Positions 3,791 through 64,000 of a DNA stretch of 64,000 nt are shown one piece after another. The position numbers and the translations under genes are program-made. The stretch lies in assembly GCA_026770705.1 (NCBI GenBank), contig JANJGN010000034.1, forward strand, positions 7,006,001 through 7,070,000, given 5' to 3'. Source of the DNA: Isurus oxyrinchus. Its lineage: Eukaryota. The notes below the pieces were generated by a model that saw only the letters and a program-made list of their open reading frames with translations, was not told where the DNA came from and ran no database searches. Each line of letters begins with the position of its first letter. Position 1 is the first letter of the stretch.

Positions 3791-3805
3791 AAAGTGTAAA
3801 GAAGG
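3791..3805 (+). CDS. 15-nt microexon, (E)SVKK
   Basis: ttttctttacctattcacag|AAAGTGTAAAGAAGG|gtaagt; paralog at 63280. Confidence 0.75.
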
Positions 3806-6800
3806 GTAAGTACAAGAATGTTACAGAAACTCGACTTTCATGTAAGATAAATAAGTTGTCCTAAAAATTCATACCTGGCACAATTGGCCCAATATCCTGT
3901 CAAGTATCTTGCCTGATGTCGAAGATAGAGTTATTTCCCTTTTTTTCACGTCCCTCTGTGACATCCCTCCTCCCCATCTGTGTAACGTTCCACAGCTCAT
4001 AATTCCTTTTTGATCCATGTATTTTTCTTCCTTAGTTTCCTATTCAGTACTTTCCCATTCCCCACCTCGACACGTTTAAGACATTCCCTGAAAACTGTGC
4101 CTCAGAGTGATCAGCCTTGATACGTTTCATAACATCTCTCAACCTGTTCGTTGTGATTCTTTACTATTTGTTCCATATCAATGTATGTTTCTGCCTTCGC
4201 CGTCGTTGTCTGTTTAGTAAAAGTTTATTAATCTCTTCAGCTAAATTTGAAAATGGCTCATATCGCATGAAGGCCCCCAGGAGACTTTGGAGTCGAATGA
4301 ACACGAGCCAGGATGTGAACCCTTCGAAAAGCACACCTTTTAAGAGAACCTGGAAGGCTGATTAAACGCATACCAGATGGGCTTAAATACTCATGTTGTT
4401 TCTCTCCGCATTCCAGAGCTAGGCACCTGCCAAGATACCATAAAGGATTTAGGTGAGCCAGTCACTTTTGATGCCTGCCAAATTTCCCGACCGTTTGCTT
4501 TACTCTTAAATCAAGCAAAGCTCCAAGTGTTTCCAAAGCACAACGGAGAAAGAACGATCCTGGAGCATTAATGCGTGTTTTTTTTAATAAATGGTGAACT
4601 TTGAAACAATGACAGATTTGTTCTGTATGGGCAGCTGAACTGTCAGTCATAGTGTTTTCTTGCAAATCTCGGTCAGAAGCTTGGCAAGTGAATTTATGGA
4701 TTGTTCGTTGTTCAGAATGATTCACGTATATCATATCATGTATAAAGCATCGCCTGCGTTGGAGCACCAGCTGTTGGCAGTCAATTCACAGACTGATGTA
4801 GGTTCATGTGTGTATTCAGATGCATGACTACAATGGAATTGAATATTTTTGGTGGGTCTTCCCTCTCTACGACATCGAACATTTTGCCTGGCTACCCAAA
4901 ATGGAAATTCATCGTATAGAGCTTGGTTACAGTAATTGGTTTTACTCATATGGAACCGAATCAGCTTTCGCCATCATATATCGCCAACTTTAATTGTTCT
5001 TGGCTCCAAGGTTAAAAAAAAGACCTAGACCTTTTTCGCGGAAAGTAAGATTTTAAAAAAAGAACTGTTACATGCCCTTAGGAATGTAGCTTCATTTATG
5101 TTATCTCCATGCTCCATGGTGTGCATTTCCCCCCGAAGCGCCACTGCGAGGTAAAGAGGAAAACTTCACTATTCATTCCTCTTTGAGCGATAGGATCGGT
5201 AGCAAGTTGCCAGCTAGCAGCGAATAAATGACTGTTGTCAACTTTCCATGAGCTGTTCTATACAAATTTCACGGTGTTCCACGTTCTCAAGGAGATTTAT
5301 GTTTGCCCTGCACTGTCGGCCTCATGCATTATAGCTTGATTTTCAGTGATAACCTTTCCGGAGTAGGTCATGCATTTGTTCATTTTGTTAATTATTCTTG
5401 ATTTGTTTCACAGATAAAATAAAAAAAGGTAAGTGGAAATATGCTCTAGCACGTGCCCATCTAAATGGATGAAAAGAAGGATGAGGAAAGATGGATTTGC
5501 AGTGATTACACATTGCAATTTAACGTAATTTTTAAATTTTCATTATTATATCTAAATCCCTCTGTGGCCTCGCCCTTCCAAAAATGCCATGAGAATCCTC
5601 TGGCCTTACAACTGGCTGCAAGTTCTGTGTTCACACCACGCTGGTTTGTTTCCGATCGCGCTATTCCTTCATCATACCAATGGCATTTTATGACTTCTGC
5701 AATATGTCCGAAGGCTCCAAAGCACGTTTGCTAAACTTTGGGCCTCAAACTATCCTTCCTCCTTTAATAATCACATATTTCCTGGGCGGTTTCCAAATTC
5801 CACCCCTCGTCCTCACCCCGGAGTCTGGCCAATAAGTAAAGTTTTGTTCAAAATATGGTGAAAAACATTGAGGATCCTTACGCCCTGTGGCACTTCGGTT
5901 ATCGGGAAGGCCTGCGAGGAACCTTAGAAATACTGAGCATCCGATACTCTGGCAAACATGTCCTCAGAACAAGCAGGGGTATACATGGCATCTTAAACAA
6001 CTCAATGACTCTTCTGGCGAACGATGTCTCCAGCAGGAACAAACCACAATCGTTTTAATTTTCTGCCATTATACCATGGTGTTGTTCCCTATAGACATGC
6101 GTGGAAGTTCATGTGCAACGGTTTGTCCATCCTAAAATTTTGACCTAACGGGCATTTTTCTTTCCGAGCCCCTCTACCATGTCATTAGGTGTCCAGCGAA
6201 TGGTGGAGGGAGCATTGTTGTGTTGTATCGAAACTATCACTTGAAATATGCTTGCACTGCATTTGGTCAATTGAAAAAGCGAGCATTCAAAGGCCCCAAC
6301 ACCAAAACTGACAGGAAACACATGTTTTGTTATTTGTCACTGATTACCACCTTACTTTATGGGGCTGAATTATTGAAAACGTACAGGAGGCACCTGAAGG
6401 GTGTTGGGTCATACCGTTAACACTGCCTGCAAAAGAAATTGCACATTAAGTGTGAGGGTAGACAGGCGAACACTAGTGCCCCCTAACAGGCAGTCAACAT
6501 AAGCTTTGGGTCTATATTCATGTGCGATCAGCTTTGGCGAGTTGGTACATCAATCGGCTGTCAGGTATCAGGCTCACAATGCAAGTATTGTTCTCGAAGA
6601 TTAGTAAGGACAGACGCACACGAGGAGGGCAGAGGACGCTCTTAAGGGATGTGCTAAAAAGCAACATGAAGAAAATGAATTATTCACATCAACACCTCGG
6701 TGGACACCCTTTCTGGATTAAGCGAAACAACACCAGGCCCTAAAGGAAGGACCCCAACAATTTGAGTCCGAATAACTACAATGTGCAAAAAGAGTGACCA

Positions 6801-9800
6801 AAGGAAAACAGCATGACCCGAATTAATGATACAAGACCTGACATCCATCAAGGCAACAAATGCCTTGGGTGCATGAAGTCTGCAGGCTTCGAATCTGACT
6901 CTTAATCCATCTCTCAAGGAAGACAATCATCCTCCCTAGTGAGGCGCAGCCAGTAATAAACGGATCTGCAAGCAATTAACAACATGTCCCGATGTGGCTT
7001 CATGTTGCATCAGTTAATTTGGTCGAAACTGTTTCCGTGGAAACAATTTTGCTGCTATTCCTAATAAAGTCGCAAAATACATGCAACTTGTCCTTTCCTG
7101 TCAAAAGTCTACTTTCAATCTCTACCAGCAAGTTTCTGCCGCCAAATCTGAGGGAACAGTGCTCACAGGATGACGAATTGAGTGTTCTACAGTACAGTTA
7201 ACCATGTGGGAGCAAACCATGTTTCCCGAAGAGAAGAGAAACATTTGTAACATAAACAAAGAACACAGCTTGTCATAGAATGGTTACAGCAAAGAAAGAG
7301 GCCATCCAGCTCTTCGCGTCAGAAGCGTATCTCTGGGTCAGTATCTCGGCTGTGCCCATGCTACAGACCTTCACCTGCAGCGCATGCAACTTGCTTGCTA
7401 TTCAAAGAATTACCCAGCTTCCTATTAAAAGCTACGATTGTTCCTTCGCTGAGCTTATTCTTAGGCATTGCATTTCGGAACCTAATGATGTGCTGCACAT
7501 TTATTTTTCCCCATGTCCTCTTTGGTTTTCTGTCAGTTAACGTTAGATTAACATCTTCCGGTTCTTGCCCATTCCTCATGAGAACAATATATATCTGTCT
7601 AACATGTCCAGGCCACATCGTGAATTTGAAAAGCCCCATGAAATCTTATTTCAATCATATTGTATTTATGTACAACCACTCTAAATTCTCAATTCATTCC
7701 ACCTGGAAGAAACAATCATCTCTCGAAACATGCCCATGAATACAAACTCTAGCCCCTCTAACGCCTTCACATCTACCTAAACTAAGATGTCCAAAATATG
7801 ATACAAGTCCCTATTCGAGGTCGAACTAGCGGTTAAACAGTTTTACTATGACTTGTTTTCTTTGCTGCCTATTCATCTATTTATAAAGCCGAGGATTTCA
7901 TCTGGCTTAGTGACAGCGTTTTCAATCTGCCCTGCATCTTGCAACCATTTGTGCTCTTATACTCCCAAAGCCACATAAGCAGCTACAATCCCCTCAGGAA
8001 TACTATCACAAGTTGTTCATTACCTCTTCCTAGCAAAATGTATCACTTCATGCCCCTCTCCACTTATTTCAAATGCAATAGTTCCTCTCATTCCACCAGT
8101 CCACCTGCGTCCATGAGATGTATTTCACGATCTTCTTCGCAATTCATAGACCTGTAAAATCTGAAAACTTTGAAATTTTGCCCTGGACACTCAGCTCTAG
8201 GTCCCTGATGCATACCATGTGAATTGATTGGAAGGGGGAAACTGCGCAATTTTGTTGACAATTAAGTGTGGATTATCCATTTTATGAATTACAGAGCAAA
8301 GCAATTGTCAACAAGCTGTAAAAGACCTAGGTGAGCAAAATATTCCCGGTGTTGCTTTAGAATGCATGGCTTATTTTTTGAACCATTAAGCAAACACTTT
8401 TATTTCTGTTAAAGAGTGAAGTTATCAATTCAGGCACCCGTTGTTTAGCGATAGGCCCACATTTGCTTCCGTTGATTTCAATAAAAGAAAATACTGGGCT
8501 AAAATCAAAACAGGCCGACCATCTGATAGTGAGCAGGATGAATTTCCGATGCTCCATGCATCATGATTATTGGTGATTTTTGTCACAACTCACTGAATCC
8601 TGCACGCTAACAGAATGATGACTTTTTTTTTAACTTATCAATTCGGCACCAAGTTGGCAAAGTGTTCTAACCAATAACGAAACTCCTCACACACGTGAAA
8701 AGTGTTGTATAATCCTACAATTTTTGTTTTTTTTATCATATAATCCCGAACAGAACAAAAACTGACCGCAAAAGAAAAAGGTACCTCATCTGACGTATTT
8801 TCTTCAAGATGCCAGAGATTGACAATGGCTGTTTGCTTCTTTACATGATTTGTTTTGTTTTCGTTTGGATGTTTTACGTTTTTTATTTAACAAAGCAGAT
8901 TCCTAGAATGTACCCGAAGGGTTGGCTCAGAGGAATCCTTTATGTGTGCTCCATAGTTTTGAGATAGGAGGGCATATTTTCCGATGCTGTATCACACAAA
9001 GTTGTAAGACAATAAATAACATGTGAACGAATGAACTGAATAAGGAATTCACTTAATGCTCCTTAAACAAGGTAGTGGCAACAACGAAGTACTCGCTAGC
9101 ACAGTGAAGTTAGAAATAAAACGTATGCGGTGGGTAAGAATGACAGGTTTGCTGATAGTGTTTGTGACGCCGTTGTGAAGTCACAACTTTCAACCAGAAG
9201 CTGCGCATTCAGGTCTCACTTCAGGACTTGATGGCTGTTGAATCTGAGTTCGTAAGGTGGCTGGCTGTTTTGGGCAGCAACTTGCAAAACCTTCCAATGT
9301 GCATGGCGGCTGGTGCTAAGAACGGGAGAGATGCTGGCAAGCCAGAAAGCAGAAGGCAACGTCAAATGACTGTCGTACTTTGCCAAGCATAATCAAGACC
9401 AACTCGAATGCAAATCCTTGACCACCAACACCCTCTGAATGTAGGTTACCTGGAAAAGCAGGAATGAAATAATGTATTTGGTAAGTTGCTCTGGTGGGGG
9501 TTAGGCTTATGCATGGAAAATTCTTTGGACGGACATATATTTTCCGCTAATTTATATGGTTTGGACTACCCTCTCGGTACTGAATTCATTAGATTCAAAT
9601 CCCTTTTTGAGATGAAAATCAGTCCAAATTAGTAAGGAAAAATGACAGAATGCCGGCTATACTTGAGCGTGTGACATGCTTAACCAGGGAGAAAAACCGT
9701 GTATCTACTTAAATACTGTAAATGAACAATCGTTCACGGGAAGAACTTGGCAAAGTCCCGCAATAAAAGAAAATCCACAAAAGGATTTGGTTTCACGGTT

Positions 9801-12800
9801 GTGAATGTTAGTTTGCAAACAGAAGCACGGTGCATGTTACTAATTGAGACTTACAGCGCCAGTAAAGATGGAATTATGCGAAGTCTTATTTTTTAAGAAT
9901 GCATGATATGCAAGTAAGATATACTAAAAACATGCCATGCAATATTGGATGACTGTCTTGGGGAGATTCAATGCCATCCCTCTGTATGTTATTACCCAAC
10001 CTGTACTCAAGTAAGGTGACCGATGCCAGCCCCACGCTTATTGCTACTGCAATCCCAGCACTCTGCTTTTTGTTAAAATGGAGTATGAAATGGCGGCCCA
10101 AATTAGATCTCATATTTTTATGAATTTGATACAAGGATCAGCTGAGGGAAATATTCTGCCATTATTTATGGGTAGGTTAAGTTGGCGCTTCAGCAAAAAG
10201 TGGGCGGAAGTACATATGATAATATGAGATGCAGTATGTGCAGTATGGAGCACGTGGAAGGACATAATCCACTTTGTCGAATATCTTGAACAGTACTGTA
10301 AGCTCTGTATCGTAAGTCGGGAGGATGGGGAGGAGGAAATTGAAATAATGATGAAACTCTCACATCTCACTATTCTAGAGATTCTAACGTGCCAAGAGTC
10401 TTTAAAGGATTCAGGTGTGAAATATATTTGTTATCTGTGTAAAATAACCGCTGCACGAAATATTCCTGCAATCCCTAGCCCAGAGGTAGAATACAGAAAT
10501 GCCGATCAGTAATTCTAAATGTACAGATATAAACTTTGCCTGCATTATATACTTACCCAGAATAGAAAGAGACCAACCCTCCACCTTCCCAGTTACTGCT
10601 CAATGAAAGTCACTCTCCATCTCTCTCTCTCTTATTAGCTGCGTTTCAGAAATATTTTCACACAACCTTGCAAGTGCTTGTTCTGCCCAATAAGTTGTTG
10701 CTCCCCGGCAACTCCCTCCAGCCCACCCTATGACATGTCTATGAATAACCATAAATCTGTAGTTTTTTTTTGCTGGTTGTCCTGGATGTGGGAACCTTTT
10801 ATTGTTATTTATTTTCTTAAGAATAATGGTCTCATCCTATTGGGCATCATTATCATAGGGTCCATTAACGTTTTTGCCATGATCAGAAAATTATCAGCTC
10901 CACTCCGCTCTCTATATAACTGAGGCCCGTGGTCTGTCGATTAAATCTTCCCTGTGCTCCCATCACGATTTGTGAATCATTGCAAACAGTGGTGCATTGA
11001 ATTTGAATACAATATCCTAAAGTGGCGCTTATAAAACAACAAACGTTGAGATGATGCACTGAGAGTCGATATATTGGTGAGATAAGTATCATCAGCAGTG
11101 AGATCTCTGTCAATTATTGATCCCGACTAATGCATGGCACTGTTATCTGAGCTGGTTTTCCGGCTACGCATGGAATGGAGGGCCGTTTCGATAGGTTCAG
11201 TTTCACGCTACAGTCCAGGATTATTATTTACCACTATATGTAGCGTGATCTACATTATTGTATTGCTGCGGAGATATGCACACAAGAGTATGCTTGACAT
11301 AGCAACTCGTTAAAAATGTCAATCCACCTACAAACTTGTGTCTTTTCATATAAAACATCAACTGTTTCAAAGATTCCTAAACCTTCCTGTTAACGTCATG
11401 GTTTGACAGAAAAAAAGCTGGAAGGCAAAGTAAAAGGTAGGCAGTTTAAGGGTTCGCTGTTTTAAAAAGACAGAAATCAACGTGTTAGGAACATAGCTAT
11501 GCGTCTTTTGTTTCATGATTAACTTTTCTCATATAGCATTTAGCATTATTAACGGGAAGAACGGCTGAATTTGGTAATTGGCTATATGTGGAGAAAAAGT
11601 TTCAGCTTGAGGTCAAAGCCAAAATTGAGAGCGAGTAAGGTAGGAGTTTAACATTAATCCAAACTCACACTCAGGAGGAAAGTATTGAACCAGGAAACAA
11701 CAAGAATTTGGAATGCACTGCTGCATGATCCTTTGTTTTACGGAATTTCACAGCATTTTTTTACTGCCAAGGACAGTTATCACACGAGATCCCACAAATG
11801 TTCAATCAACCTGATTATCACGGATTAAGTATTGTGTCATCCCCAAGAAAATTTTAATGTCAACTCCAGATTAATGTCCGCCGTGCATTGTTAAGCAAGT
11901 TTACCCCGTGCTTGCAGTCTGGTTTAAAGACTGTTCCTTCCACAAAATAACGATGCCTTCCTTTGAGAACTTGTTCATGCTTTGGGTAATGACTTTGGAA
12001 GGATACATGTAGATGTCTAAATATCCAGACTGTGTTCCCTCAGGTTGTTTGCAGTCATTTCAGGGGCCATGTGTGATTGAAATTCCTCGGCGCACTTTAC
12101 TGTCAGCCAACGAGCTGAATAGTGTGCGAGCTTTAAGGAATGCTATCCAGCAAACACTGTGCAGTTCATGCACTAAGTATGAAATTATGTTGATCATTCT
12201 CAACAGAATACTAAAGCGGAGTCCATCAAATGAGTATATAGAACCTATTTAAATAACATCTGCACGCACAAAAACATAGTGCCTACTTAGCAAAGGCGCT
12301 ACGGATTACACCGAAACATTTCTAGATTAAAACGAAGTTTAAGTTCTCCAGAAAAGAAAATTCATGAATGAAACCATGCCAATGTCCCTTATAGAAAGCA
12401 GAAGTTCGTCACCAATAAAAAGCAGTTAGTGGAAGAGCTTCAAGTAATGCAAACCACATTCGTCTATTCAACCTCAGTCTCTAACAGCAGTGTAGGTTCG
12501 AGACACGATTGTTAATAGGATTACCGGGCCAGTTTGATTGCTGTCGGGATATTAAAATTATCGCGCTGTTACTTCACATTACCAATGGCATTTTATTGCT
12601 TCTGCAATATGTCCCAAGGTCCCAAAGCATGTTTGCTAAACTTTTCACCTAAAAATCTCCTTCCACCTTGAACATTTACATATTTCCTGGGCGGTCTCCA
12701 GAGTCTACCGCTCGTCCTCACCCCGGAGTCTGTCCACTAATTAAAGTTTCGTTCGAAACATAGTTAAATGCAGTGAGGTGCCTTTTGCCCTGTGGCACTT

Positions 12801-15800
12801 CGTAAACCAAGAAGGCCGCTTAGGAACCTCACAAATACTCAGCAGACGATGCTCTGGCTTACATGTCCTCAGAACAAAAAGGGGAATACATGACATCTTA
12901 AATGCTTCAGTGGCTCTTCTGGAGAACAAAGGCTGCTGCAGGACCAAGCCTCCAAACGTATCAGTTTTCTGCAAATAGACCAAGGTATCGTTCTCTAAAG
13001 ACACGCGGGGAAGTTGGAATGCAACTGTTTGCCCATCCTAAAATCTTTCTTTCCTTCCACGCACATCACCCATGCCATCAGGTGCCCAGCGAATACTGGA
13101 GGAAGCATTGTTGTGTTATATGCAATCTATCACTTGAAGTATGCTTGTACAGCTTTTGGTCAATTGGGAAAGTGAGCATTGGAAGGTTGCAACACCAAAA
13201 CTGACAGGAAGCTCATGATATGTTATTAGTCTCTGATTCCCACCTTACTGTACGGGACTGCAACATGGGCAACATGCAGGAGGCACCTGAAAGCCATTGG
13301 GTCATACCGTTAACACTGGCTGGGAAAGAAATTGCATATTATGTGGGAGGGCAGACAGGTGAACACTAGTGCCCCCTTACAAGCAGGCAGCATAAGCTTT
13401 GGATTTATGCTCATGTGTGATCAGCTTCGGTGAGATGGCACATAGTTCGGCTGTCAGATATCAGACTCGGAAAGCAGGTATTGTTCTCGAAGATTAGCCA
13501 GGACAGACGCACCAGAGGAGGGAGAGGAAATTCTTCAGTGATGTGCTGAAAAGCAAGATGACAAAAATTAATTATTCTTATCGACACCTCGTTGAAAACT
13601 GTTTATTGATGAAGTCAAACGGCAGCAGCCCCTATAGGAATAATAGAAGCAATTCGAGTCTGAACAAGTACAAAATGATCAGGAAAGAAAAGATCGGACA
13701 AAGGAAAACAGCATGACCCGAATTAATGATACACGACCTGACATCCAACAACGTTTGAAATGCCATGGGTGCATGAAGTCTACAGGTACCGAATCTGCCT
13801 CATCAGCTAACTCAAGTTCATGGAGGACAATCGTCATCGCTAGTGAGGCAGAGCCAGTAATAACAGTACCTGCAAGTAAATAATCACATGTTCCGATGTG
13901 GCCTCATGTTGCATCAGCTCCAGTTTTGTCAAAACTGTTTCCGTGGAAACAATTTTGCTGTTTTCCTTTTAAAGTCGCTATATACATGCAAATTGTCCTC
14001 TCCTGCCAACAGGCAAATTTAAATCTCTACCAGCAAAGTTTCTGCCGCCAAATCTGAGGGAACAGTTGCTCGCAGGATTACAACGTTAGGGTTCTTACAG
14101 TACAGTTAACCATAAGGGAGAACACCATGATTCCGGAAGAGAAAATAAACATTTGTAGCATAAACAAAGAACACAGCTTGTTATAGATTGGTTACAGAAA
14201 AGAATGAGGTGACCGGCTCTTCGTGTCAGAGGCGTATCTCTGGGTCATTATCTCGGCTGTTCCCATGCTGCAGACCTTCACATACAGCGCATGCAACTTG
14301 TTTGCTATTCAAAGAATTACCCAGCTCCCTATTAAAATCCATGATTGTCCCTTCACCGAGCTCATTCTTAGGCATTGCATTTCGGAACATAATGATGCAC
14401 TGCAGATTTAATTTTCCCCATCTTCCCTTTGGTTTTCTGTCAGTTAGCATTAAATTAATGTCTTCCGGTTCTTGACCATTCCAGATGGAACAGTCTATAC
14501 TTGCCTAACATGTCCAGGCCACGTCGTGAATGTGAAAAGCCCCATCAAATCATCTTTCACTCATACTGTATCTATAGAAACCGCTCTGAATTCTCAATTC
14601 TTTCCAGCTGGAAGAAACAATCATATCTGGAAACATTTCCATGAATACAAGCTCTACCCTCTCTAACGCCTTCACTTCTCCTTAAACTATGTTGTCCAAA
14701 ATATGCCACAAGTCCCTAGTTGAAGTCGAACTAGCGATTAAACAGTTTTACCATATCTTCCTTTCATTGATGCATTTTCTTTTATTTCTGAAGCCGAAGA
14801 TTTCACCTGGCTTAGTGACTGCGTTTTCAATCTGCCCTGCATCTTGCAACCATTTGAGCTCTTATACTCCCAAAGCCCCATAAGCGGCTTCAATCCCCTT
14901 TAGAATGCTACCACAAGTTGCTCATTGCCTCTTCCTACAAAAATACATCAATTCATGCCTCTCTCCACTCATTTCAGCCGCAATAGTTCCTCCCATTCCA
15001 CCAGTCCATCTGCATCCGTTTGAATTATTTCACCATCTTCTTAGCAATTCATAGACCTGTAAAATCTGAAAACTTTGAAATTTTGCCCTGGACACTCAGC
15101 TCTAGGTCCATGTAGATAGATTGGAAGGGGGAAACTGCGCAATTTTGTTGACAATTAAGTGTGGATTATACATTTTATGAATTACAGAGCAAAGCAATTG
15201 TCAACAAGCTGTAAAAGACCTAGGTGAGCAAAATATTCCCGGTGTTGCTTTAGATTACATGCCTTGTTTTTTTTGAACCATTAAGCAAATACTTTTACTT
15301 TCGTTAAAGAGTGAAGTCATCAATTCAGGCACCCGTTGTTTAGCGATAGGCTCACATTCTCTTCTGTTGATTTCAATAACATAAAATACTGAGCAGAAAG
15401 CAAAACAGGCCAACCATCCGAAAGTGGGTAGGATGAATTTCCGATGCTCCATGCATCACGATTATTGCTGCTTTTTGTTACAACTCTTACTGAATCCTGC
15501 ATGCTAACGGGCTCATGACTTTTTTTTTAAAACTTATCGATTTGGCACCAAGTTGGCAAAGTGTTCTAACCAATAACGAAACTCCTCTTACTCGTGAAAA
15601 GTGTTGTTCAATCCTATAATTTTTGGTTTGTTTGTCATGTAATCCCGAACAGAAGAAAAACTGACTGCAAAAGAAGAAGGTACCTCATCTGACGTATTTT
15701 TTTGAAAAAGCCAGATATTGACAATGGTTGATTGCTTCTTTACAAGATTTGTTTTGTTTTCGTTTGAATGTTTTATGCTTTTTTTTTAACAAAGCAGATT

Positions 15801-17536: not shown

Positions 17537-17568
<32 letters not shown>

Positions 17569-39688: not shown

Positions 39689-39724
<36 letters not shown>

Positions 39725-54700: not shown

Positions 54701-57700
54701 AGATCCCACGAATGTTCAATGGACCTGATTTTCATGGAGTAACTATCGTGTCGTCCCCAAGAAAATATTACTTCAGCGTGGTCAACTCCAGATTAATGCC
54801 CCCCGTGCATTGTTAAGCAAGTTTACCTCGTGCTTGCAGTCTGGTTTAAAGACTGTTACTTCCGCAAAATAACGATACTTTCTCTTGAGCACTTGTTCGT
54901 GCTTTGGGTCATGACTTCGGAAGGATACATGTTGATCTGTAAATGATCAGACGGTCTTACCGCTGGTCGTTTGCAATCGTTTCAGGGGCCATTTGTGATT
55001 GAAATTTCTCGGCGCACTTCTCTGTCAGCCAACGAGCTGAATGGCGTGCGAGCTTTAAGGAATGCTGTGTAGCAAACACTGTACAATTCATATACTAATT
55101 AACAAATTAAGCTGATCATTCTTAACAGAATACTAAAGCGGAGTCTGTCAAATCGGCATAACGAACCTATTTAAGTGACATCTACACGCACAGAGACATA
55201 GTGCCTAGTTAAACAACGACGCTACAAATTACACAGAAACATTTCTAGGTTAACACGAAGTTTAAGTTCTTCAGCAAAGAAAATTCACGAATGAAACCAA
55301 TGTCTCTTGTAAAAAGCAGAAGTTCGTCACCAATAAAATGTAGTTAGTGAAAGAGTTTCAAATAATGCAAAATGAATTCGTCTATTCAATCTCTGTCTCT
55401 AAAAACATTGTAGGTTCCAGACACGGTTGTTAAGAGGATTACCGGGGCAGTTTCATTGCTGTAGGGGAACATAGGGATACTAAATGGAGCTCTTCTGTAA
55501 TCTGGACAAGGAAACGTAACTGATGACCTTGACAATGCTATGATCCTTATAAACCAGTTGTTTTCTTTCTATCTTAGAATGCAATGACTTTCTGCAGAAG
55601 TGCAGTGAGTATTCCACGACCCAGCAGCCACCAAGGTCTGAACTTCCCGATTCGTTATTAAGCCTGTACTGCGTAAAGAACTTCTCCGTAGATAAAACGT
55701 GTGCCTTGGGGGACAAGAATATTTTCGAATAAGGGCATTAAAGCACAACCCGAAGACATGAGGAGAAAATGTCTGAAAGGAAATTGCCGTGTTACTTTCT
55801 TCCCTGAAGCTGCACCGAATATTATATCCTCGCAGCTTCCAGCTTTTTAGTTGTGAATCTGTAGACAGAACTTCCGCTTTCTGGTCAGAAGGTTGCGAAT
55901 TCAAGTCCAGAGATAGAAGTTGAGCGCAGGCGCAAATGCTGACACGTCCGTGCAGCCCTCAGGCAGCAATGTATTGCAGGAAGTGGCGTGTCGCCGTTTA
56001 GTATATAAAACGAGGCCAGGTCTGCACTCAAACTTGGACGTAAATGACCCAAAGCCAAATTTGAAAGAAACGAAGGGAAGTTTTCCACCGATGTGCTGTT
56101 GAATAATTACCCATTAATTAAACCTCACATAACAAGGTAGTTTTGGTGGTCTTGGGGTCCCTGGTGAGTCGGGCGGAACAAGTATCTGCGCTGAAACAGT
56201 TCATTCAGAGAGAACATTATATCACCAGCTTTAGGTTGGCAGATGGATCAGACGGACAATTGACAGATGACGTCTTACGCAGAAAATTGCGATCGCATTA
56301 TTTTTGTGGGAAGAACGAGGCGAGGCAATGCAAGACAAAGTGTTAAAATCTAAATGGATTTCAGGGTGATTATCCCTGTTTTTGAATTTGCCCAAATTGC
56401 TCAGGGTGACAAGGCAGGTTGAATGGGCGGTTAAAAAAACAAAAACGGGCCTTAGCTTAATAAAGAGGGTCATATAGCACGAAGACATGCAGTTTACAAT
56501 AAATGTATGAAATACTAGGCGGGCCTCAATTTGAGAATTGTTTCAAATTCTGGACAACATTCTCGAGGAAAATGTGTCGGCATTATAGAGTGTGCACAAG
56601 TGTTTTTTTTAAATGATTCCAGGGATGAGGAGCTGCACTTACGTGGTTGATTTGGACAGGTTTTCTTCACCTTGTTGAACAGAACATTTATAAACTATTT
56701 GATAAAGGTGAACATAATCATTAGCATCCAGGGTAGAGTAAACACGAGAGAGTTGGGCCGTTGGCAGGAACTGTCGAAAATCAGTGGAGGCCGAGTTAAG
56801 GTAATTGACAACATAAACATTGGTGCCATGAGGGATACATTTGCTTTTCCAGCGAGTGCTTAGCATTTGGATCATACTGCTAACAGTGTCGTGGAGGAAT
56901 GTTCTATAGACGTTTTCAGCGGAGTATTAAATAATTATTTCAAGAAGAGAGTTACTTCAGAGGAGTGTTACTTAGAATTGCGGGGCAGTGGGATGAAATG
57001 AAATTAATTGTGAGATTCGGCATTGGTTCGATGTGTCGGAAGGTCTCTCTCTCTCTATCTGTCTGGCTCTCCCTCTCTCCCTCTCTCTCTCTTTATGTCT
57101 CTCTCTCTCCCCCTCTCTATTTCACTCTCTATATATGTTTTAAAGCTGATTAGATAGATGGTTAGACGGACGGATGGATGGATGGTTAGACGGATGGATG
57201 GACGAATGATTGGACGGACGGGCTTACGGATGGACGGACGGTTTAATGGATGGATATTTAGGTAGACAGACAGATAAGGAAAATAGATAGATAGCAATTG
57301 GACCTGACAGTACAGGACAATTCCTTAACAGTTCCGAATGACACAAGGCATGGAGGTGCGGCAAACAAACAGGTTGATAACAACCGACTGCACCAAGACA
57401 TAAGTAGTCGAGCAGCATAAGCATCAAGTGTTGGATCGAATTTAATGCACATAACGCTGAAGTGATACATTTTTGTAAAACCTATAGAGGAGGGCAAATA
57501 CCCTTATTGAAACGATTCTTATGTGTGCGACTGAACAGATAAGGAGCAGAATTTCTTTAAGTTATTTTCAAATATTACAAGGGTAACGAGCACATTATTT
57601 GGATTCTTGGGCTTAATAAGTGGAGGCATTCAGCACAAAAGTAGAAAATTGTGCATAACCTTTTGAAACTCTGGTTATGCCGTACTTAATGTTGTTGCAT

Positions 57701-58188
57701 TCGGTTATAAACATATATTTGGAAGGAGCGACTGATCATTAAGAGGTTGCTGAAGAGAATTGGCGGAATGGTTCCACTGATAAGTGAATTTAACGATCAT
57801 GGAAGATTGCTGAACGTACGTTTCTTTTCCAAAGAGCATAAAAGGCTGAGAGGAGATCTATAAGTTAATGTCTTGTTTAGGTAAGGGAGACAAAGAGATC
57901 CCATTCAGATGCGCTTATGGTACAGGCATGAGGAGGACATAATTTTCCATTTTGTGCAAGGGTTGATTAGAAACTGTCAAAATTCTCTAAAAGATTTAGG
58001 TGAGGAAAACTCTATTTATGTTTCTTTATTCTTTCTCACTAATCGTTGTTTTTTAAAAAAAAACAAAGTGGAATATGTTTCAACGAGCTTCTAAACACTC
58101 CAGATTCTATATCGGAATTATATAGCGGTATGAGGGTGTATCCTTTCAAGCGAAGTGTGACAATGTGCGGCAAATAGAAATTAACATA

Positions 58189-58232
<44 letters not shown>

Positions 58233-61200
58233 CACCGATTAATGTAGAAATTCGGCTTGATGTTCTTGGCTATTATCGCAGGAATCATGCATTCGTTTGA
58301 GGCATCTGTTCAAGGAAGAAAAACATATGTTTGATTTTATAGAATTCAGTAGAATACATTAGCCTGGTAAATAATGGAAGAATGTTAAACTGTGACCGGG
58401 AACGAATTTCAATTGCTTCATGTAGCACAAAGTTTGCATGTCACTGCAAGGGTTACGTAACACCATTTGGGAATAGCTGTACCAATGTTATTTTTTAGGC
58501 ATCCTTTTAGAAACTGGTGGCTAGCATGCTATGCCATGCTAATAAATTCCCAGCGGCCCCAAAGGCCTCTAAGTATTTTTTCAACTAATTTCATACGTTT
58601 AACATTTTACTTTTCTCTTTAACAGAAGAAAAATATAAAGTAAACGAGCAAGGTGAACTTTTGCTTACATCAAAGAGTGAATGCTTTGCATGTTGCATTT
58701 TATTTGCATCATTGTGCAAAGAGATTTGCAACGTAGTTTATATAAATTATGTGCCGCATCAGATGGTGCCTCATAGTATGAAATTATTCAATATGGTATA
58801 TATAAAGGAGGCTTTTTCACTTGTAGTAAATCAAAAATGAGAGTGTCACGTATTTGAAGATAGAATAGTGATAGAAAAATACAATAGTTAATCCAGGCAT
58901 TAAGTCTGGACCTGGAAAATGGCAACAATATGGACTTCGAGACAACAATGTAGATTTTATGCTTCATCGCAAAGATGAATTTAGAAAGAAGCTAAATATT
59001 TTCAAGAAGGAAGATGGAACAGGAGATTTTCCACATGGTGGAAGTTGAAGCAGGGAAAGAGAGTTTTTTTTTAAACCCCACCAGCAATAACGTCAAATTA
59101 GGTCAAATGATGTACTTCCAGTTCTGCTCACCTTAAGGCCTTTTTTACCGTGAGAAATGTCACTTTGGATGGACTACATCTTCACAACCAAACCCAAAAT
59201 TTGCTCATAATAGAAAGGAGAAAGAGGTGTAGTATATAATGGAAGGACAATTGAATGACGCTCATGTTAGATTGCTGTGTAAGGTAAATATTACCTTAAT
59301 TATTAGCACATTTAAGAAATCCTGAAACACGACAAAAGTTAGGATTTTAGCTTAACCATTGCATGTACGTCGGCGCGCATGGGAGAGTTTGAGGAACGGG
59401 ACTTGCTGTCACCAATGACAGGGCAGCAGGGTTTTGGATGGCTAAAATAACAAAGATCGTAGGGAGTCATAAACAGACAGCTGCTTATTGCAGCAGTCAA
59501 ATCTAGAGATAATGAAGGCTTAGAGTAGAGTTTCAGCATCAGAGGCCCTGAGATGCAAGTGAAGTCGAGGCTTGGACAGTCGCACCAAGGTCATGAAAAA
59601 ACTGGAATAATCATGGACTGCTACCAGGGAAAGGGATGTGTTGGGTACTTAGGGAAGAAATCTTGCAAGGGGCACCAAAATCAAGGGCTTCAGTCTTCCC
59701 AATATATATCTAGTGGGATTCCTGTTTAGTCAGTAATGGATTCCGAATCAGCAGAGTGATAATTTAAAGCAGTGGAGGATTCGAGAGAGCTGGTGAAGAG
59801 GTAGATGTGTGTGTCATCAGCGTGCATGTGAAAATTCAAAGCGTGCCTTCATATGTTGTCGCGAGGGGGCAATTATTAATTGTTGAGAGCAACATTGGGC
59901 ACTCTGTTGGAGCAGGGAAATATGCCATTTGCCACCGACCCTCAAGCTATAATTACATAGATAAAATTGAACTTTGTGGGAGTGGTTCCATCCAGTAGTA
60001 GGAGAGTGGCAAGTGTTGGAGTAGGGTGCTGGGTCAACTGTGTCAAAGGTTTCAGACCGGTGGAGATGGGTGTGCATTGAATATTTACCTCAGGCACAGA
60101 CGTATGGTATGCCATTTGAAATTATGGTTGCAGCTGCTTCTGTATGGTAACAAAGGTGAAAACCTGATCGGAGGGATTTGAACTTATTTCTTTGAAAAAT
60201 GAGAACTAACTTGCAAGGCGACAGCTCTTAATTGGTGATTATAGAGGAAAGAGAGTTTGAAGATGATGGTGGTGGTTTACAATCGGGTGAGTGATTAAGG
60301 TTTTGGGAGATGGGTGAGGACAGCGGATTTAGAAGAAAAATGGAGAAAATATGAATAGAGAAACCGAAAAAACATCGTCAGTCTTGCTGCCAAGAAGTCT
60401 AGATGGTTGGCCTGCTGAGCATCGTGGAAAAGGGATATGGGTGCCATTGATCAGGCAAGTTTGAAGAGCCCATGGACAGTAATTGGCGTGAATGTAGAAC
60501 AACGTTCGAGTTTAAAGCTGGGGCAAGGAGGGGAATAGAAGGTAATTTACCGAGGTGGACAAGAAAAGAGAAAGCTGTAGCAGAAGCAGATGGCCGGAGT
60601 GTTTCGTTCTTAGTGACAAAGATATCATTTAGAGCCTTGCAGTTTTTGTTGGGGGTGAGGGTGGAAGGGACAGGAGAGAGGGATATAAATAGACTTAGAG
60701 GTAAGAATTACATTACAAGATGATCTAGCAATTCTGAGCGGTGGTGACGGCAATATCGAGAATGTCCAAGACATCGCTAAAGCTGCAGAGTAGGCTCATC
60801 CAAACTCACCTCATCTAACTTCAGTTCTAGAGGGATATAATTGAAAATCCATAAGCTGATGTCACAATTTACAAGGATGTGAGTCGCTGTGGTAATGCCT
60901 GAAAAATGAATTATTAAGTGACATGTAATATGGAGGTTCTCCAATTTAGTGAACAATGTGAAATCATATCAACAGGAAAATTATCAGTCATATCGGACTT
61001 CGGAGGGCTGAACATGCCAAGGAAAGAGTTAAATATTTTCCAGTGAAAATTAAGTGACCATTTCTTTTCTATTGACTTCGCAGAGCTACAGGATTGTCAA
61101 GATATTCTGAAAAATTTCGGTGAATAAAGCACTTTAATTGCATAATTATATTTTCATCTATCCACTTGTAGTAGAGTCAAACAATTCTTCAAGGAACATG

Positions 61201-63943
61201 CGAAATTTCCGAGTGAAATACAAATGCGGAAGTGTGCTTTTTTGGGATAGTGAATATTTTGTACGCACAACATATGCGAAAATGTATGAGGCACCAATGG
61301 GAATGGGTTCAGTAGTTTCTTGCCACTACACTCCAGCAAGTAATTAGCTCATGATTTGATTTCGTTAGCCCAGAGTATGTCAGTGGAAAAATGCTGGAAT
61401 CCATTATTAAGTAACTAGTAGCAGCGTATCCACAACATTACAATCCATTCAAGTGGAAGCACCATTTTTTCTCTCAAAAGGAAATCGTGTTTATTAAATC
61501 AATTAGTGTTCTTGTCGTATGTAACAAGCAGGGTTTGCAAATGGAATCCAGGCGCGTCCTTGCTAAAAAAACAACGCATCCATTAAGGTGCCATATGAAA
61601 TGTAACAATAAATAATAATAGTTTATTGTGCTGTGCATAATGTAGTACCATGTTCAGGAGATTGGTAACCTAACAGGAAACAGAGAATCTGGATAAACGT
61701 TTCATTTTCTGATTGGAAAATTTTAACTGGTGAGATCAATAATAGACCTTCAACTATTAACAATATATATTAAACTTTGGAAAGAAGAGGTCGAGTGCAT
61801 TGTTCCCAAAGTTGCTGGCGTTTGCAAAGGTGGGAAAGGAATCAATTTGCGGAGACTACACTTCTGGTCTGAAAATCAGTGAAGATAGTTTAAGTGAATA
61901 ATCATAAAGAATAGCAGATGGAACGTGATGATGGAAAATGTGAGTTTGTTCAGAATGAAAACAGGAGCAGATTGTTAATGATTCGGAAAATATCAGAATA
62001 CAGCATGCTGAAAGATTGGTGTGTCTTTGTATATGAATCACAAATGAATATAGCATGAATGTAAAGCACGAGGTTTGGCAGGAAAGCAGACTTTTGAGCT
62101 TTACTGAACAGGAGAGGGCGCTTAAGAGAAAGGAATTGTTTTTTCCCAATATCCAGTGTGGGACCTCATCTGGTGTATTGCAAACGGCTGCCATTCCTTA
62201 AGTTGACGAGCGATTGAGGTGGGGGTGTGGAGTAGGGTGAGAAGTTGTTGAATATGCATGCATTGGAGACACTTAGTGAATGTCCAATCAGTTGACTTAG
62301 AGGATTTACTCTGACCAGTGAAGTTGGAGAAGTTTGCTCCTACATTCATTTCGGCTTAGCAGAATTAGTGGTGATCTTACCGAAGCATATATGATTCTGA
62401 GAGGGCAGATGGAAATATATTTGATCCTCCTGAAGGGTAATCAAAAGCTAGCAGATACAGTTTCAAAATAAGGCATCTTCCAGTTATGAGAGAGTTTTTC
62501 CTTCACTGAATCGTTAATATTGCAAGTCACTACTGCAGTGGACGGTGTAGGCTGTTTCATCGAATATTTTATAAGACTGCATCTTAACCTACGAGGCAAT
62601 TAATTCTTATGGGGATGGTAATGATATAAAAACAAAAAAAGAACTGCTGAAGTTGGAATCAGAAATGAAACAGAAAATGCTGGTAAAACATAGCCGTTCT
62701 GGCAACATCTGTGTAGAGAGAAAGGGGGATTAACTTTTCGAGTCCATACGGCGCTTCTTCACAGCTGGTTGTGGAGTTAAGGCAGGGAAGAGGATTTAAG
62801 GCACGACCAGATTAGTTATATTCTCGTGGAGTAGAGGGGAAGGTTAGACGGGATAATTGGCCGACTTCTGTTATCTATTCTTATGTTTTGGCGTTGTCAT
62901 TTGGCGAAATCACTATTTCTCCTTTTTCAAAACTGCACATAGCCAAAGTCTGTAACAGCTCCATTAGATTGAGAATTAAAATATCCTGTTGTATTCACAA
63001 AAATCTCAGAGATTTACTGATTCGGCCAGACTGCTGAACACACTGTTTTCTTTTGGGGAGAAAAGCATAGTAAATGAAGGGTAAAAACCTTAAACTTTAC
63101 TCTCATTTGGATATCAATAACTGGAGCAACCAGTCAATGATCAGCAGTAAACGGAAGAGAGAGTTTTTCACTTTGCCATCGGATGTCTGATACCGAATTG
63201 CGGATCGTTTTTTTTACGTTCAGTGACATTCTACATCTTGTAACTTTTCTATTGCTTATATTGCTTTACCGATTCACAGAAAATGTAAAGAAGGGTAAGT
63301 ATAAGTAAGTTACAGAAAATCTACTTGTAAAGCAAAATAAATAAGTTGCCCTAAAAATTCATCACTGGTGCAATCGGCCCAATATCCCGTCAAGTATGCT
63401 GCTTTTGTCGAAGATAGAGTTAATTCCCTTTTTTCACGTCCTTCTGTGACATCACCCTTCCCCATCTGTGTAACCTTCCACAGCTAAAAATGCATTTTTA
63501 ATCTACCTAATTTGCTTCCGTAGTTTCTGATTTAGTACTTTTCCAGTCCCCACATCTACACGCTTAAGACATTCCCTAAAAACTGTCCCTCAGAGTGGTC
63601 AGCCTTGATACCTTTTATAATATCTCTCAACCTGTTCGTTGTGGTTCTGTTACTATTTCTTCCATATCCATGAATGTTTCTGCCTTCTTTGTCATTGTCT
63701 GTTTAGTATAAGTATATTAACCTCTTCAGCCTAATCCAAAAAAAAGCTCATATCGCATGAAGCTCCCCAGGGGACATTGGAGTGGAATGAACATGAGCCA
63801 GGATGTGACCACTTCGAAAAGCGCACCTTTTTAAGAGAACCTGGAAGGCTGATTAAGCGCACACCTGATAGGCTTTGATGCTCATATTGCTTCTCTCTGC
63901 ATTCCAGAGCTAGGCATCTGCCAAGATACCATAAAAGATTTAG
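3791..63943 (+). CDS. Internal part of a microexon-encoded long coiled-coil protein gene (37 visible exons, ~376 codons; start and stop outside the window)
   Basis: Every exon is bounded by AG/GT, has a length divisible by 3 and is phase 1-1. The joined frame has no stop, with 3-4 hydrophobic spacing and a recurrent C-[QK]-x-x-[LVI]-K-[DN] motif. Exon length is invariant across array copies while introns carry indels. Confidence 0.85.
4417..4452 (+). CDS. 36-nt microexon, ELGTCQDTIKDL
   Basis: tttctctccgcattccag|AGCTAGGCACCTGCCAAGATACCATAAAGGATTTAG|gtgagc. Confidence 0.85.
5414..5428 (+). CDS. 15-nt microexon, DKIKK
   Basis: ttcttgatttgtttcacag|ATAAAATAAAAAAAG|gtaagt. Confidence 0.7.
5900..6960 (+). 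mobile_element. Degenerate RTE-clade LINE 3' fragment (one per array unit)
   Basis: Across units the frames read ..ADDA.., ACTAFGQLRK..F....TK..KLM.., IPTLLYGA.TW.TYRRHLK, QLRW.GH.VRLSD.RL.KQVLF, GGQRK.F.DVLK; stops and frameshifts in every unit. Confidence 0.8.
7390..8240 (-). mobile_element. Degenerate CR1 LINE 3' fragment (one per array unit)
   Basis: Reverse strand reads I.DLDLSVQGKISKFSD, NC.ED....Q.DADGLVEW, then the decayed CR1 ORF2 C-terminus. Confidence 0.8.
8295..8330 (+). CDS. Unit 1 exon D (36 nt), EQSNCQQAVKDL
   Basis: ttatgaattacag|...GACCTAG|gtgagc; conserved in all 7 units. Confidence 0.85.
8754..8780 (+). CDS. Unit 1 exon A (27 nt), EQKLTAKEK
   Basis: cccgaacag|...GAAAAAG|gtacct; ACC versus ACT synonymous difference to other units. 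Confidence 0.75.
10379..10414 (+). CDS. Unit 1 exon B (36 nt), EILTCQESLKDS
   Basis: ctcacatctcactattctag|AGATTCTAACGTGCCAAGAGTCTTTAAAGGATTCAG|gtgtga. Confidence 0.8.
11410..11436 (+). CDS. Unit 1 exon C (27 nt), EKKLEGKVK
   Basis: gtttgacag|...GTAAAAG|gtaggc. Confidence 0.8.
15188..15223 (+). CDS. Unit 2 exon D, EQSNCQQAVKDL
   Basis: attacag|36 nt|gtgagc. Confidence 0.85.
15653..15679 (+). CDS. Unit 2 exon A, EEKLTAKEE
   Basis: gaacag|27 nt|gtacct. Confidence 0.75.
17293..17328 (+). CDS. Unit 2 exon B, EILTCQESLKDS
   Basis: ttctag|36 nt|gtggga. Confidence 0.8.
18211..18237 (+). CDS. Unit 2 exon C, EKKLEGKEK
   Basis: ccttgacag|27 nt|gtaggc. Confidence 0.8.
22008..22043 (+). CDS. Unit 3 exon D, ELSDCKQAVKDL
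   Basis: attacag|36 nt|gtgagc. Confidence 0.85.
22468..22494 (+). CDS. Unit 3 exon A, EEKLTAKEK
   Basis: gaacag|27 nt|gtacct. Confidence 0.75.
24083..24118 (+). CDS. Unit 3 exon B, EILTCQESLKDS
   Basis: ttctag|36 nt|gtggga. Confidence 0.8.
25122..25148 (+). CDS. Unit 3 exon C, ETKLEGKEK
   Basis: tttgacag|27 nt|gtaggc. Confidence 0.8.
28919..28954 (+). CDS. Unit 4 exon D, EQSSCQQAVKDL
   Basis: attacag|36 nt|gtgagc; GAT versus GAC synonymous. Confidence 0.85.
29382..29408 (+). CDS. Unit 4 exon A, EQKLTAKEE
   Basis: gaacag|27 nt|gtacct. Confidence 0.75.
31009..31197. other. Assembly gap (189 N)
   Basis: Run of N. Confidence 1.
31514..32223 (+). mobile_element. Penelope-like element 3' fragment, same family as 843-2552
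   Basis: Encodes ..SEAQRKLEEQHLIFRLGTLQPSGLNIEFNKFRS* and matches the reverse complement of ~843-1505. Confidence 0.92.
32622..32657 (+). CDS. Unit 4 exon B (second copy), EILTCQESLKDS
   Basis: ttctag|36 nt|gtggga. Confidence 0.8.
33647..33673 (+). CDS. Unit 4 exon C, ETKLEGQEK
   Basis: ccttgacag|27 nt|gtaggc. Confidence 0.8.
37350..37385 (+). CDS. Unit 5 exon D, ELSVCQQAGKVL
   Basis: attacag|36 nt|gtaagt. Confidence 0.85.
37809..37835 (+). CDS. Unit 5 exon A, EETLTAKGK
   Basis: gaacag|27 nt|gtacct. Confidence 0.75.
39453..39488 (+). CDS. Unit 5 exon B, DILTCQESLKNS
   Basis: ttctag|36 nt|gtggga; ACA versus ACG synonymous, E>D and D>N conservative. Confidence 0.8.
40499..40525 (+). CDS. 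Unit 5 exon C, EKKLEGKGK
   Basis: ccttgacag|27 nt|gtaggc. Confidence 0.8.
44291..44326 (+). CDS. Unit 6 exon D, ELSDFQQAVKDL
   Basis: attacag|36 nt|gtgagc. Confidence 0.85.
44752..44778 (+). CDS. Unit 6 exon A, EEKLTAKEK
   Basis: gaacag|27 nt|gtacct. Confidence 0.75.
46425..46460 (+). CDS. Unit 6 exon B, EILTCQESLKDS
   Basis: ttctag|36 nt|gtggga. Confidence 0.8.
47450..47476 (+). CDS. Unit 6 exon C, ETKLEDKEK
   Basis: ccttgacag|27 nt|gttggc (weaker donor). Confidence 0.7.
51206..51241 (+). CDS. Unit 7 exon D, ELSICQQTGKDL
   Basis: attacag|36 nt|gtgagt; CTC versus CTA synonymous. Confidence 0.85.
   Translation, partial: SSASVNKLEKT
51664..51690 (+). CDS. Unit 7 exon A, EETLTAKEK
   Basis: gaacag|27 nt|gtacct. 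Confidence 0.75.
53330..53365 (+). CDS. Unit 7 exon B, EILTCKESLKDS
   Basis: ttctag|36 nt|gtggga. Confidence 0.8.
54334..54360 (+). CDS. Unit 7 exon C, EKKLEDKEK
   Basis: ccttgacag|27 nt|gtaggc; TTG versus CTG synonymous. Confidence 0.8.
55578..55604 (+). CDS. 27-nt microexon, ECNDFLQKC
   Basis: ttttctttctatcttag|AATGCAATGACTTTCTGCAGAAGTGCA|gtgagt; strong splice signals, single copy. Confidence 0.65.
55850..56130 (+). mobile_element. Degenerate tRNA-headed SINE, Deu-domain/SacSINE1-like
   Basis: gtcagaaggttgcgaattcaagtcc (B-box-like) followed by gctgacac..gtgcag..aaacgaggcc.gtctgc.ctca..tggacgtaaa.ga.cc; recognised from memory of the family. Confidence 0.6.
56230..57040 (+). mobile_element. 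Degenerate CR1 LINE 3' fragment
   Basis: Decayed ..WQM...AEKC...F.GKNE.RQ.K.. and downstream CR1-like sequence. Confidence 0.65.
57043..57293. repeat. Compound microsatellite, (CT)n followed by (GGAT/GGAC/AGAT)n
   Basis: Seen directly. Confidence 0.9.
57440..57930 (+). mobile_element. Degenerate CR1 LINE fragment
   Basis: ggattcttgggcttaataagtggaggcattcagcacaaaagtaga resembles GILGFI.RGI.YKS. Confidence 0.55.
57961..57999 (+). CDS. 39-nt microexon, (R/G)LIRNCQNSLKDL
   Basis: ttttccattttgtgcaag|...AAAGATTTAG|gtgagg; carries the CQxxLKDL motif; the AAG acceptor is less common so the 5' boundary is uncertain. Confidence 0.65.
58189..58228. repeat. (AT)n microsatellite
   Basis: Seen directly. 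Confidence 0.9.
58626..58652 (+). CDS. 27-nt microexon, EEKYKVNEQ
   Basis: ttacttttctctttaacag|AAGAAAAATATAAAGTAAACGAGCAAG|gtgaac; resembles the A/C exon class. Confidence 0.65.
59350..60720 (-). mobile_element. Degenerate L2-clade LINE ORF2 fragment
   Basis: Reverse strand reads SETFDTVD (AAFDTVDH), FHMHADDTHIY (FHMYADDTQLY) and AETLL*AFIISRFDCCN. Confidence 0.8.
61084..61119 (+). CDS. 36-nt microexon, ELQDCQDILKNF
   Basis: tttcttttctattgacttcgcag|AGCTACAGGATTGTCAAGATATTCTGAAAAATTTCG|gtgaat. Confidence 0.8.
63280..63294 (+). CDS. 15-nt microexon, ENVKK
   Basis: gattcacag|AAAATGTAAAGAAGG|gtaagt; paralog of 3791. Confidence 0.75.
63908..63943 (+). CDS. 36-nt microexon, ELGICQDTIKDL
   Basis: gcattccag|36 nt|gtgagc; paralog of 4417 with synonymous AAG>AAA. 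Confidence 0.85.
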
Positions 63944-64000
63944 GTGAGCCAATCACTTTTGATGCCTGCTGAATTTACCGACCATTTGCTTTACTCTTAA

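Follow-up and report, generated by a model that had tools for sequence, protein, structure and literature searches.

Butyrophilins, chicken BG proteins and TRIM proteins provide the closest points of comparison for the locus analysed here. According to the available text of the sources cited, a butyrophilin (BTN) consists of IgV and IgC2 domains, a transmembrane (TM) segment, a short heptad region and a B30.2 domain (PMC8813856), of which the last is intracellular (PMC12841164); BTNs, whose origin dates to jawed vertebrates (PMC11788884), are present in cartilaginous fishes (PMC12841164). The heptads of BTN3A have been modelled as coiled-coil dimers (PMC10665462). In the same available text, chicken BG proteins possess cytoplasmic tails encoded by 13–36 exons of 21 or 24 nt (PMC4046983), and their genes form a tandem multigene cluster with copy-number change and with hybrid genes generated by recombination (PMC4046983, PMC8813856). 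TRIM proteins carry RING, B-box, coiled-coil and PRY-SPRY regions. Schistosome micro-exon genes (MEGs) are composed of many short symmetric exons, are unrelated and encode no B30.2 domain; mammalian enterophilins join a long heptad run to B30.2 in a protein much shorter than the one proposed below, and vespryns are secreted B30.2 domains with no rod. The likeness of these last three systems to the present locus is one of description only.

The window, i.e. the whole stretch of 64,000 nt that was analysed, corresponds to positions 7006001–7070000 of contig JANJGN010000034.1 (here C34) in the 4.98 Gb genome of the shark Isurus oxyrinchus, and covers ~6% of copy B, the name used here for a gene region that spans 1.04 Mb or more. 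Like BTN1A1, BTN2A and BTN3A, copy B has a heptad region and, after it, a terminal B30.2 domain (their joining being deduced from layout and from the models of relatives), and the best solved relative of its SPRY exon is the BTN3A1 B30.2 domain (E 5.8e-20). However, no IgV, IgC2 or TM segment was found for copy B, its predicted rod comprises hundreds of heptads rather than a few, and its SPRY clade stands apart from the five BTNs sampled. With chicken BG, copy B shares a long coiled-coil tail encoded by tiny in-frame exons in a tandem cluster, including 21-nt exons at its 5′ end, although most exons elsewhere are of 27 and 36 nt; BG has IgV and TM segments and lacks B30.2, whereas copy B has ~210 or more exons and an intact B30.2. 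The order of coiled coil and B30.2 is that of TRIM proteins, but the relatives of copy B carry neither RING nor B-box (11 of 11 scanned) and its coiled coil is far longer. Copy B was not filed as BTN, BG or TRIM, given that Ig, TM, RING and B-box segments were not seen in the sequence covered, that BG has no B30.2 and that the SPRY clade stands alone; by analogy, it would work like the heptad tail of a butyrophilin or BG protein.

Micro-exons of the window and their conservation

Both strands of the window were scanned for AG-exon-GT segments resembling the motifs of the original prediction. Forty such segments were present on the plus strand and none on the minus strand. Three plus-strand rows, all weak 15-nt matches, were dropped, and the other 37 (3791–3805 to 63908–63943) are the AG/GT-bounded exons that had been predicted, all found at their places (Table 1). 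Every exon is in phase 1 at both ends, and phase-1 joining of the 37 yields 376 aa with no stop, as had been claimed, whereas the two alternative frames contain 51 and 6 stops. With a total of 1,128 nt, they occupy 1.76% of the window, in agreement with the predicted coding fraction of under 2%. The acceptors are CAG (28), TAG (8) and AAG (1), and splice sites are weak in some exon types, e.g. 36c and 39e.

Table 1. Features of the locus. Positions are those of the window unless prefixed by C34 or C21; window exons were located by motif scan and as flank-located copies, except where another basis is given.
Feature	Position	Strand	Remarks
Tandem array, seven units of ~6.9 kb	5654..55488	+	81–88% identical, introns included
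Exon type 15a	3791..3805	+	15 nt, phase 1
Exon type 36a	4417..4452	+	36 nt, phase 1, one Cys
Exon type 15b	5414..5428	+	15 nt, phase 1
Unit 1, 36b	8295..8330	+	36 nt
Unit 1, 27b	8754..8780	+	27 nt
Unit 1, 36c	10379..10414	+	36 nt
Unit 1, 27c	11410..11436	+	27 nt
Unit 2, 36b	15188..15223	+	
Unit 2, 27b	15653..15679	+	
Unit 2, 36c	17293..17328	+	
Unit 2, 27c	18211..18237	+	
Unit 3, 36b	22008..22043	+	
Unit 3, 27b	22468..22494	+	
Unit 3, 36c	24083..24118	+	
Unit 3, 27c	25122..25148	+	
Unit 4, 36b	28919..28954	+	
Unit 4, 27b	29382..29408	+	
Unit 4, 36c	32622..32657	+	
Unit 4, 27c	33647..33673	+	
Unit 5, 36b	37350..37385	+	
Unit 5, 27b	37809..37835	+	
Unit 5, 36c	39453..39488	+	
Unit 5, 27c	40499..40525	+	
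Unit 6, 36b	44291..44326	+	Phe in place of Cys
Unit 6, 27b	44752..44778	+	
Unit 6, 36c	46425..46460	+	
Unit 6, 27c	47450..47476	+	
Unit 7, 36b	51206..51241	+	
Unit 7, 27b	51664..51690	+	
Unit 7, 36c	53330..53365	+	
Unit 7, 27c	54334..54360	+	
Exon type 27d	55578..55604	+	27 nt
Exon type 39e	57961..57999	+	39 nt, weak AAG acceptor
Exon type 27e	58626..58652	+	27 nt
Exon type 36f	61084..61119	+	36 nt
Exon type 15a	63280..63294	+	15 nt, first of next higher-order repeat; motif scan, repeat identity
Exon type 36a	63908..63943	+	36 nt, in next higher-order repeat
First micro-exon of copy B	C34:6459146	+	
Terminal B30.2/SPRY exon of copy B	C34:7496442-7496962	+	521 nt, phase 1, intact, 426 kb past window
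Last micro-exon of paralog A	C34:6392663		
Clade SPRY exon	C34:2.71 Mb	-	
Clade SPRY exon	C34:3.47 Mb	-	
Clade SPRY exon	C34:4.82 Mb		
Clade SPRY exon	C34:6.40 Mb		
Clade SPRY exon	C34:7.50 Mb		
Clade SPRY exon	C21:89.72 Mb		
Clade SPRY exon	C21:91.35 Mb		

Each unit of the tandem array contributes four exons of 36, 27, 36 and 27 nt, corresponding to 42 aa or six heptads. Both ends of the window belong to a higher-order repeat, with positions 62079–64000 being 85% like 2592–4509. Unit 4 is longer than the other units, and extra 36c-type flanks (30600–32300) reach both sides of an N stretch within it. A multi-copy element at 842–2592 and 31513–32184 is 85–96% like copies elsewhere in the locus and contains a 345-aa frame on the minus strand (1338–2372), for which no Pfam match was found; this element resembles a retrotransposon fragment.

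Since the seven 42-mers sit in a tandem duplication that includes the introns, their repetition alone proves nothing, and since whole units were copied, selection was assessed without use of the motifs. Alignment of each exon type plus 150 nt of flank on either side to 524 kb of locus sequence yielded 108 full-length copies (11 of them the queries themselves), six partial matches being set aside. AG, GT, length and frame were kept in 107 of the 108 copies. Splice dinucleotides were changed at one of 388 positions, compared with ~50 expected at the flank rate of 12.9%, and gaps were present in none of 2,922 exon columns as opposed to 700 of 24,783 flank columns. The sole decayed copy in the array of copy B is a 39-nt exon (type 39e) downstream of the window (C34:7158317), the donor of which reads GA. 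Amino-acid constraint among the seven array units is mild (pN/pS 0.69), and exon identity (0.91) is only modestly above intron identity (0.86). Judged by these patterns of change, the window micro-exons are selected, frame-preserving exons.

The wider series, its terminal exon and paralog A

Similar exons continue on both sides of the window in a series extending from ~C34:6.46 to 7.50 Mb. Between C34:6.896 and 7.50 Mb, a splice-plus-composition score, for which many of the counted exons had served as training examples, returned 216 raw matches on the plus strand versus two on the minus strand at one threshold, and 185 non-overlapping plus-strand matches, among which 28 of the window's 37 were recovered. 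Combined with the array count, this amounts to ~210 exons encoding ~2,100 aa over the 600 kb that were read completely; exons of the same strand and phase follow one another there without a break, starting at C34:6.896 Mb and going on as far as the SPRY exon. Further upstream, such exons were present in ~6 of 20 spaced 5-kb samples, by which the series reaches 6.525 Mb, and a stretch of continuous sequence takes it on to 6.459 Mb, with 21-nt exons at this 5′ part; ~340 kb (between 6.555 and 6.896 Mb) was covered by samples only.

The series ends in a B30.2/SPRY exon with AATAAA signals behind it, so that the idea of a gene made of micro-exons only had to be abandoned. Its counterpart in paralog A matches the Pfam SPRY profile with an E of 1.8e-13. 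C-type lectin and tetherin-like affinities, which had been considered, were dropped once this exon was found. In 30 kb and four 5-kb samples downstream of copy B, no further micro-exon gene was seen.

Upstream of copy B (C34:6.397–6.459 Mb), no native first exon, TM exon or intact Ig exon was found, and a motif scan revealed neither RING nor B-box. A 75-nt candidate exon at C34:6457734 was ruled out, as it lies within a dispersed repeat. Just past the SPRY exon of copy B, the plus strand carries a nectin-like gene (C34:7510720–7524148) with an intact signal exon (7510720), a TM-like exon and, as the sole Ig exon observed, an intact 351-nt IgV exon whose best PDB matches are nectin-2 and nectin-1. 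A duplicated 5′ fragment of this gene, carried along in the duplicated unit, is located upstream of copy B (C34:6421428–6424700). At 6421428, 38 kb before the first micro-exon of copy B, this fragment has an ATG exon of 49 nt that is intact, codes for 16 residues, most of them hydrophobic, and ends in a GTAAGT phase-1 donor; just three exons of this kind passed the filter in 969 kb. It differs from the nectin-like signal exon at 9 of 49 nt, and the adjacent IgV copy (87% identity) contains an in-frame stop and two 1-nt deletions. The reading of the 6421428 exon as an original start of this gene was dropped, as the exon is a duplicate of the nectin-like signal exon beside a broken IgV copy; it may be passive debris. 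With 150 of 3,319 V-set candidates scored, the only IgV seen upstream of copy B is this broken, nectin-type one. Copy B may start by read-through from paralog A, from a captured nectin promoter or at a missed exon. Beyond the nectin-like gene, the minus strand carries Ig C2/I-type, DUF4430 (just under the cut-off) and weak claudin-like matches at C34:7541264, 7568750 and 7598952, respectively.

Paralog A is collinear with copy B, ~79% identical to it and located 1.0–1.4 Mb upstream, with its own SPRY exon at C34:6395819, which has a good acceptor and two AATAAA signals. The likeness of copy B to paralog A has a sharp boundary within an intron (C34:6455840, matching 5091193), upstream of which paralog A has further micro-exons, with one candidate at C34:4881641; by this alignment, copy B is a partial tandem duplicate of paralog A. 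A search for the first exon of paralog A by DNA comparison recovered just the two known copies. Across 35 intact pairs of micro-exons, the two copies differ with a dN/dS of 0.42 (Fisher p 2.4e-4; five decayed A copies and eight exons with no A match in the compared sequence were left out), and the corresponding value for the SPRY exon is 0.45. By these ratios, both copies are constrained. Five consecutive micro-exons of paralog A (C34:5830244–5840814) lack splice sites, two of them with stops, while their counterparts in copy B are intact. This block has the look of unselected copies and its neighbouring exons are unharmed; exons are therefore lost in blocks as well as gained. Duplication of exon blocks has occurred at several scales (6.9 kb, 20–60 kb and ~1.3 Mb).

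The predicted rod and its alternative readings

In the 294-residue core of the window translation, the strongest hydrophobic period is 3.5, and the first heptad core column consists of L, I or V at 88% of positions. The exact 3–4 heptad spacing of the original prediction is borne out by this period and this column, but less well by the second core column, which is half polar (50% hydrophobic; C 13, K 13, L 7 and S 7 of 42). Among 5,000 shuffles, 0–3 reached the 3.5 signal in five of the seven units, compared with 143 in unit 5 and 39 in unit 7. The proposed continuity of heptad phase applies to the 294 residues, over which the register is constant, and not beyond, as a +3 shift occurs at three places outside the core. 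The common pair of 36- and 27-nt exons equals exactly three heptads. Cysteine makes up 5% of window residues, mostly at one core position, and N-glycosylation sequons are few (4 in 1,824 aa). A parallel two-chain coiled coil measures about 0.15 nm per residue, so the ~2,100 encoded residues would give a rod of 300 nm or more; the 376 residues for which a rod of ~55 nm had been calculated are a small middle part of it.

The reading that we favour, with moderate confidence, is that some 210 or more micro-exons are spliced together into one long frame and onto the downstream B30.2/SPRY exon, and that the product is a parallel, dimeric coiled-coil rod of ~300 nm or more with a pair of B30.2 domains at its tip, most likely intracellular. 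Such a rod would resemble a hugely extended butyrophilin/BG tail and could serve as a cytoplasmic tether, a placement that is preferred because the B30.2 domains of BTN and TRIM proteins as well as BG tails are intracellular, and because sequons are rare. It may function as a spacer or tether holding B30.2 out at a defined distance, or as a bridge from a cytoskeletal or membrane site to the B30.2 ligand. Since the frame survives the gain or skipping of any exon block, the length of the rod would be tunable, through unequal crossing-over in evolution and through exon skipping per transcript. Cysteine recurs at the same core position once per 21 residues; a parallel dimer would bring each of these residues opposite its counterpart, where a cross-link might form, and the +3 register shifts could represent local hinges. 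The half-polar second core position and the mild constraint within the array count against this explanation.

If correct, this reading would show the 'heptad exon' design of butyrophilins and BG expanded ~six- to tenfold in exon number and into megabase genes. With block gain and block loss in one genome, the locus would constitute a natural experiment on rod-length evolution and a test of the ordered splicing of hundreds of 15–39-nt exons, and identification of the tissue and of the B30.2 ligand would bring to light a role, immune or structural, that is specific to sharks.

The same rod and B30.2 tip could instead belong to a secreted, disulfide-cross-linked protein that has captured the nectin promoter and signal exon and skips the dead IgV exon. 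The intact signal-type exon at C34:6421428 and the abundance of cysteine at one core position would suit such a protein, and the regular Cys and ~16-residue hydrophobic starts of the skate (XP_055510696.1) and chimaera (XP_042192744.1) models also fit it. However, that exon is no better conserved than the broken IgV copy next to it, butyrophilin B30.2 domains are intracellular in the available text of PMC12841164, and other relatives' models have no hydrophobic start; the chimaera model opens with a few hydrophobic residues and then basic ones, and the starts of predicted models can stem from introns. Secretion was lowered to a rival reading, although the main one, because the exon is a nectin-like duplicate, and we now regard it as rather unlikely. 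A question of gene boundaries only, and compatible with either a cytoplasmic or a secreted product, is whether copy B forms a second 3′ arm of paralog A, such that transcripts end at the SPRY exon of A or skip it and run through B, over 2.6 Mb or more. The mid-intron start of the homology below continuing A micro-exons, the selection on a copy with no native 5′ end found, and the phase-1 symmetry by which skipping the last exon of A keeps the frame are all in its favour, but the SPRY exon of A has a good acceptor and two AATAAA signals, a nectin-derived promoter or a missed first exon could serve copy B, and transcription of 2.6 Mb is slow. This arrangement is a tentative possibility, which we would not presently prefer. 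Bolder still, and doubtful, is a unit of 2.6 Mb or more (>500 micro-exons with alternative B30.2 last exons), or else a nectin chimera, that would produce disulfide-braced rods of 0.3–0.8 micrometres with a length set by splicing; such a product would amount to a molecular ruler or fibre of tunable length, peculiar to cartilaginous fishes, and the gene would have one of the highest exon counts among those of vertebrates.

Two further explanations dispense with a giant rod. As in schistosome micro-exon genes, the exons might be a library of optional cassettes, from which small, varied subsets are used to make many short rods. Symmetric exons permit any subset, some splice sites (e.g. those of 36c and 39e) are weak, cassette isoforms occur in relatives, and most annotated relatives are <500 aa in length; yet the alternation of 36- and 27-nt exons keeps register over 294 residues only if neighbours are used together, and relatives include models of 945 and 1,697 aa. 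We consider such a library improbable. The possibility that the locus is a dead or passive segmental duplication, in which exon-like pieces persist as copies that are young or homogenised, would accommodate the modest excess of exon over intron identity and the lack of a demonstrated 5′ end in copy B. It is largely refuted by the single splice change against the ~50 expected, the absence of indels and the dN/dS of 0.42, and truly dead copies nearby are visibly broken; we judge it highly improbable.

Related SPRY genes in the shark and in other cartilaginous fishes

A HMMER search of 1.84 billion representative proteins (E 0.001) yielded 1,682 matches. The closest named single-domain matches derive from chimaera, skate, electric ray, catshark, bamboo sharks and basking shark, and include, besides the chimaera and skate proteins cited above, XP_038668997.1 and XP_038672308.1 (catshark), XP_069775385.1 (electric ray) and XP_078422387.1 (basking shark). 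SPRY was the only Pfam domain over the cut-off in all 11 relatives scanned, with RING, B-box and Ig found in none of them. The chimaera protein (1,697 aa) combines rod and SPRY in one model and contains the window's E-L-x-x-C-type motif seven times, a catshark model with rod and SPRY has 945 aa, and the rods of relatives are K/E-rich where the model is long enough. Among eight predicted RefSeq isoform pairs of relatives, four differ by internal cassettes of 6, 9, 9 and 9 residues and the other four at the start. Copy B thus shares with a chondrichthyan family both the SPRY domain of this clade and, preceding it, a K/E-rich rod containing E-L-x-x-C-type motifs; this is a family which on database sequences reaches from chimaeras to sharks.

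Proteins with a rod and B30.2 are a known kind, and relatives are already in RefSeq, under misleading automatic names such as TRIM39-like, A33-like and, for the chimaera protein, nuclear-pore anchor-like. The expectation that annotation could miss the gene needs qualification, as the family does have RefSeq models in other cartilaginous fishes. Copy B exceeds all models seen in size (~2,100 aa or more versus at most 1,697 aa) and differs from them by its nested, recent repeat array. No long homologs were found with the SPRY exon alone, and the N-terminal part of the chimaera protein was found neither among 59 candidates in the shark genome nor in the Atlas. A published study of this coiled-coil plus B30.2 family was not found in the literature searched, which was mostly outside subscription journals.

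In a tree of 40 domains, a 100/100 branch separated all 20 family rows from five BTN and 15 TRIM or other domains; similarity had guided the choice of family rows, rooting was by midpoint only and the bootstrap had not fully settled. Five SPRY exons of this clade are located on C34 and two on C21 (Table 1), one of the C21 domains being very close to a basking-shark protein in the tree. The C2-set_3 profile gave 37 matches among 110 candidates scored, none of them in C34:2.7–7.5 Mb, and in a weak test no C34 match to B-box was present among the best 150 of 2,305 candidates. Micro-exon pattern matches were observed at C34:3.54–3.71 and 4.53–4.72 Mb and at C21:90.54 Mb, which suggests that several of the clade SPRY exons likewise belong to very long genes. 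The interval C21:82–118 Mb contains >100 B30.2 exons, many B-box exons and some butyrophilin-type IgC2 exons, and represents a large TRIM/BTN region.
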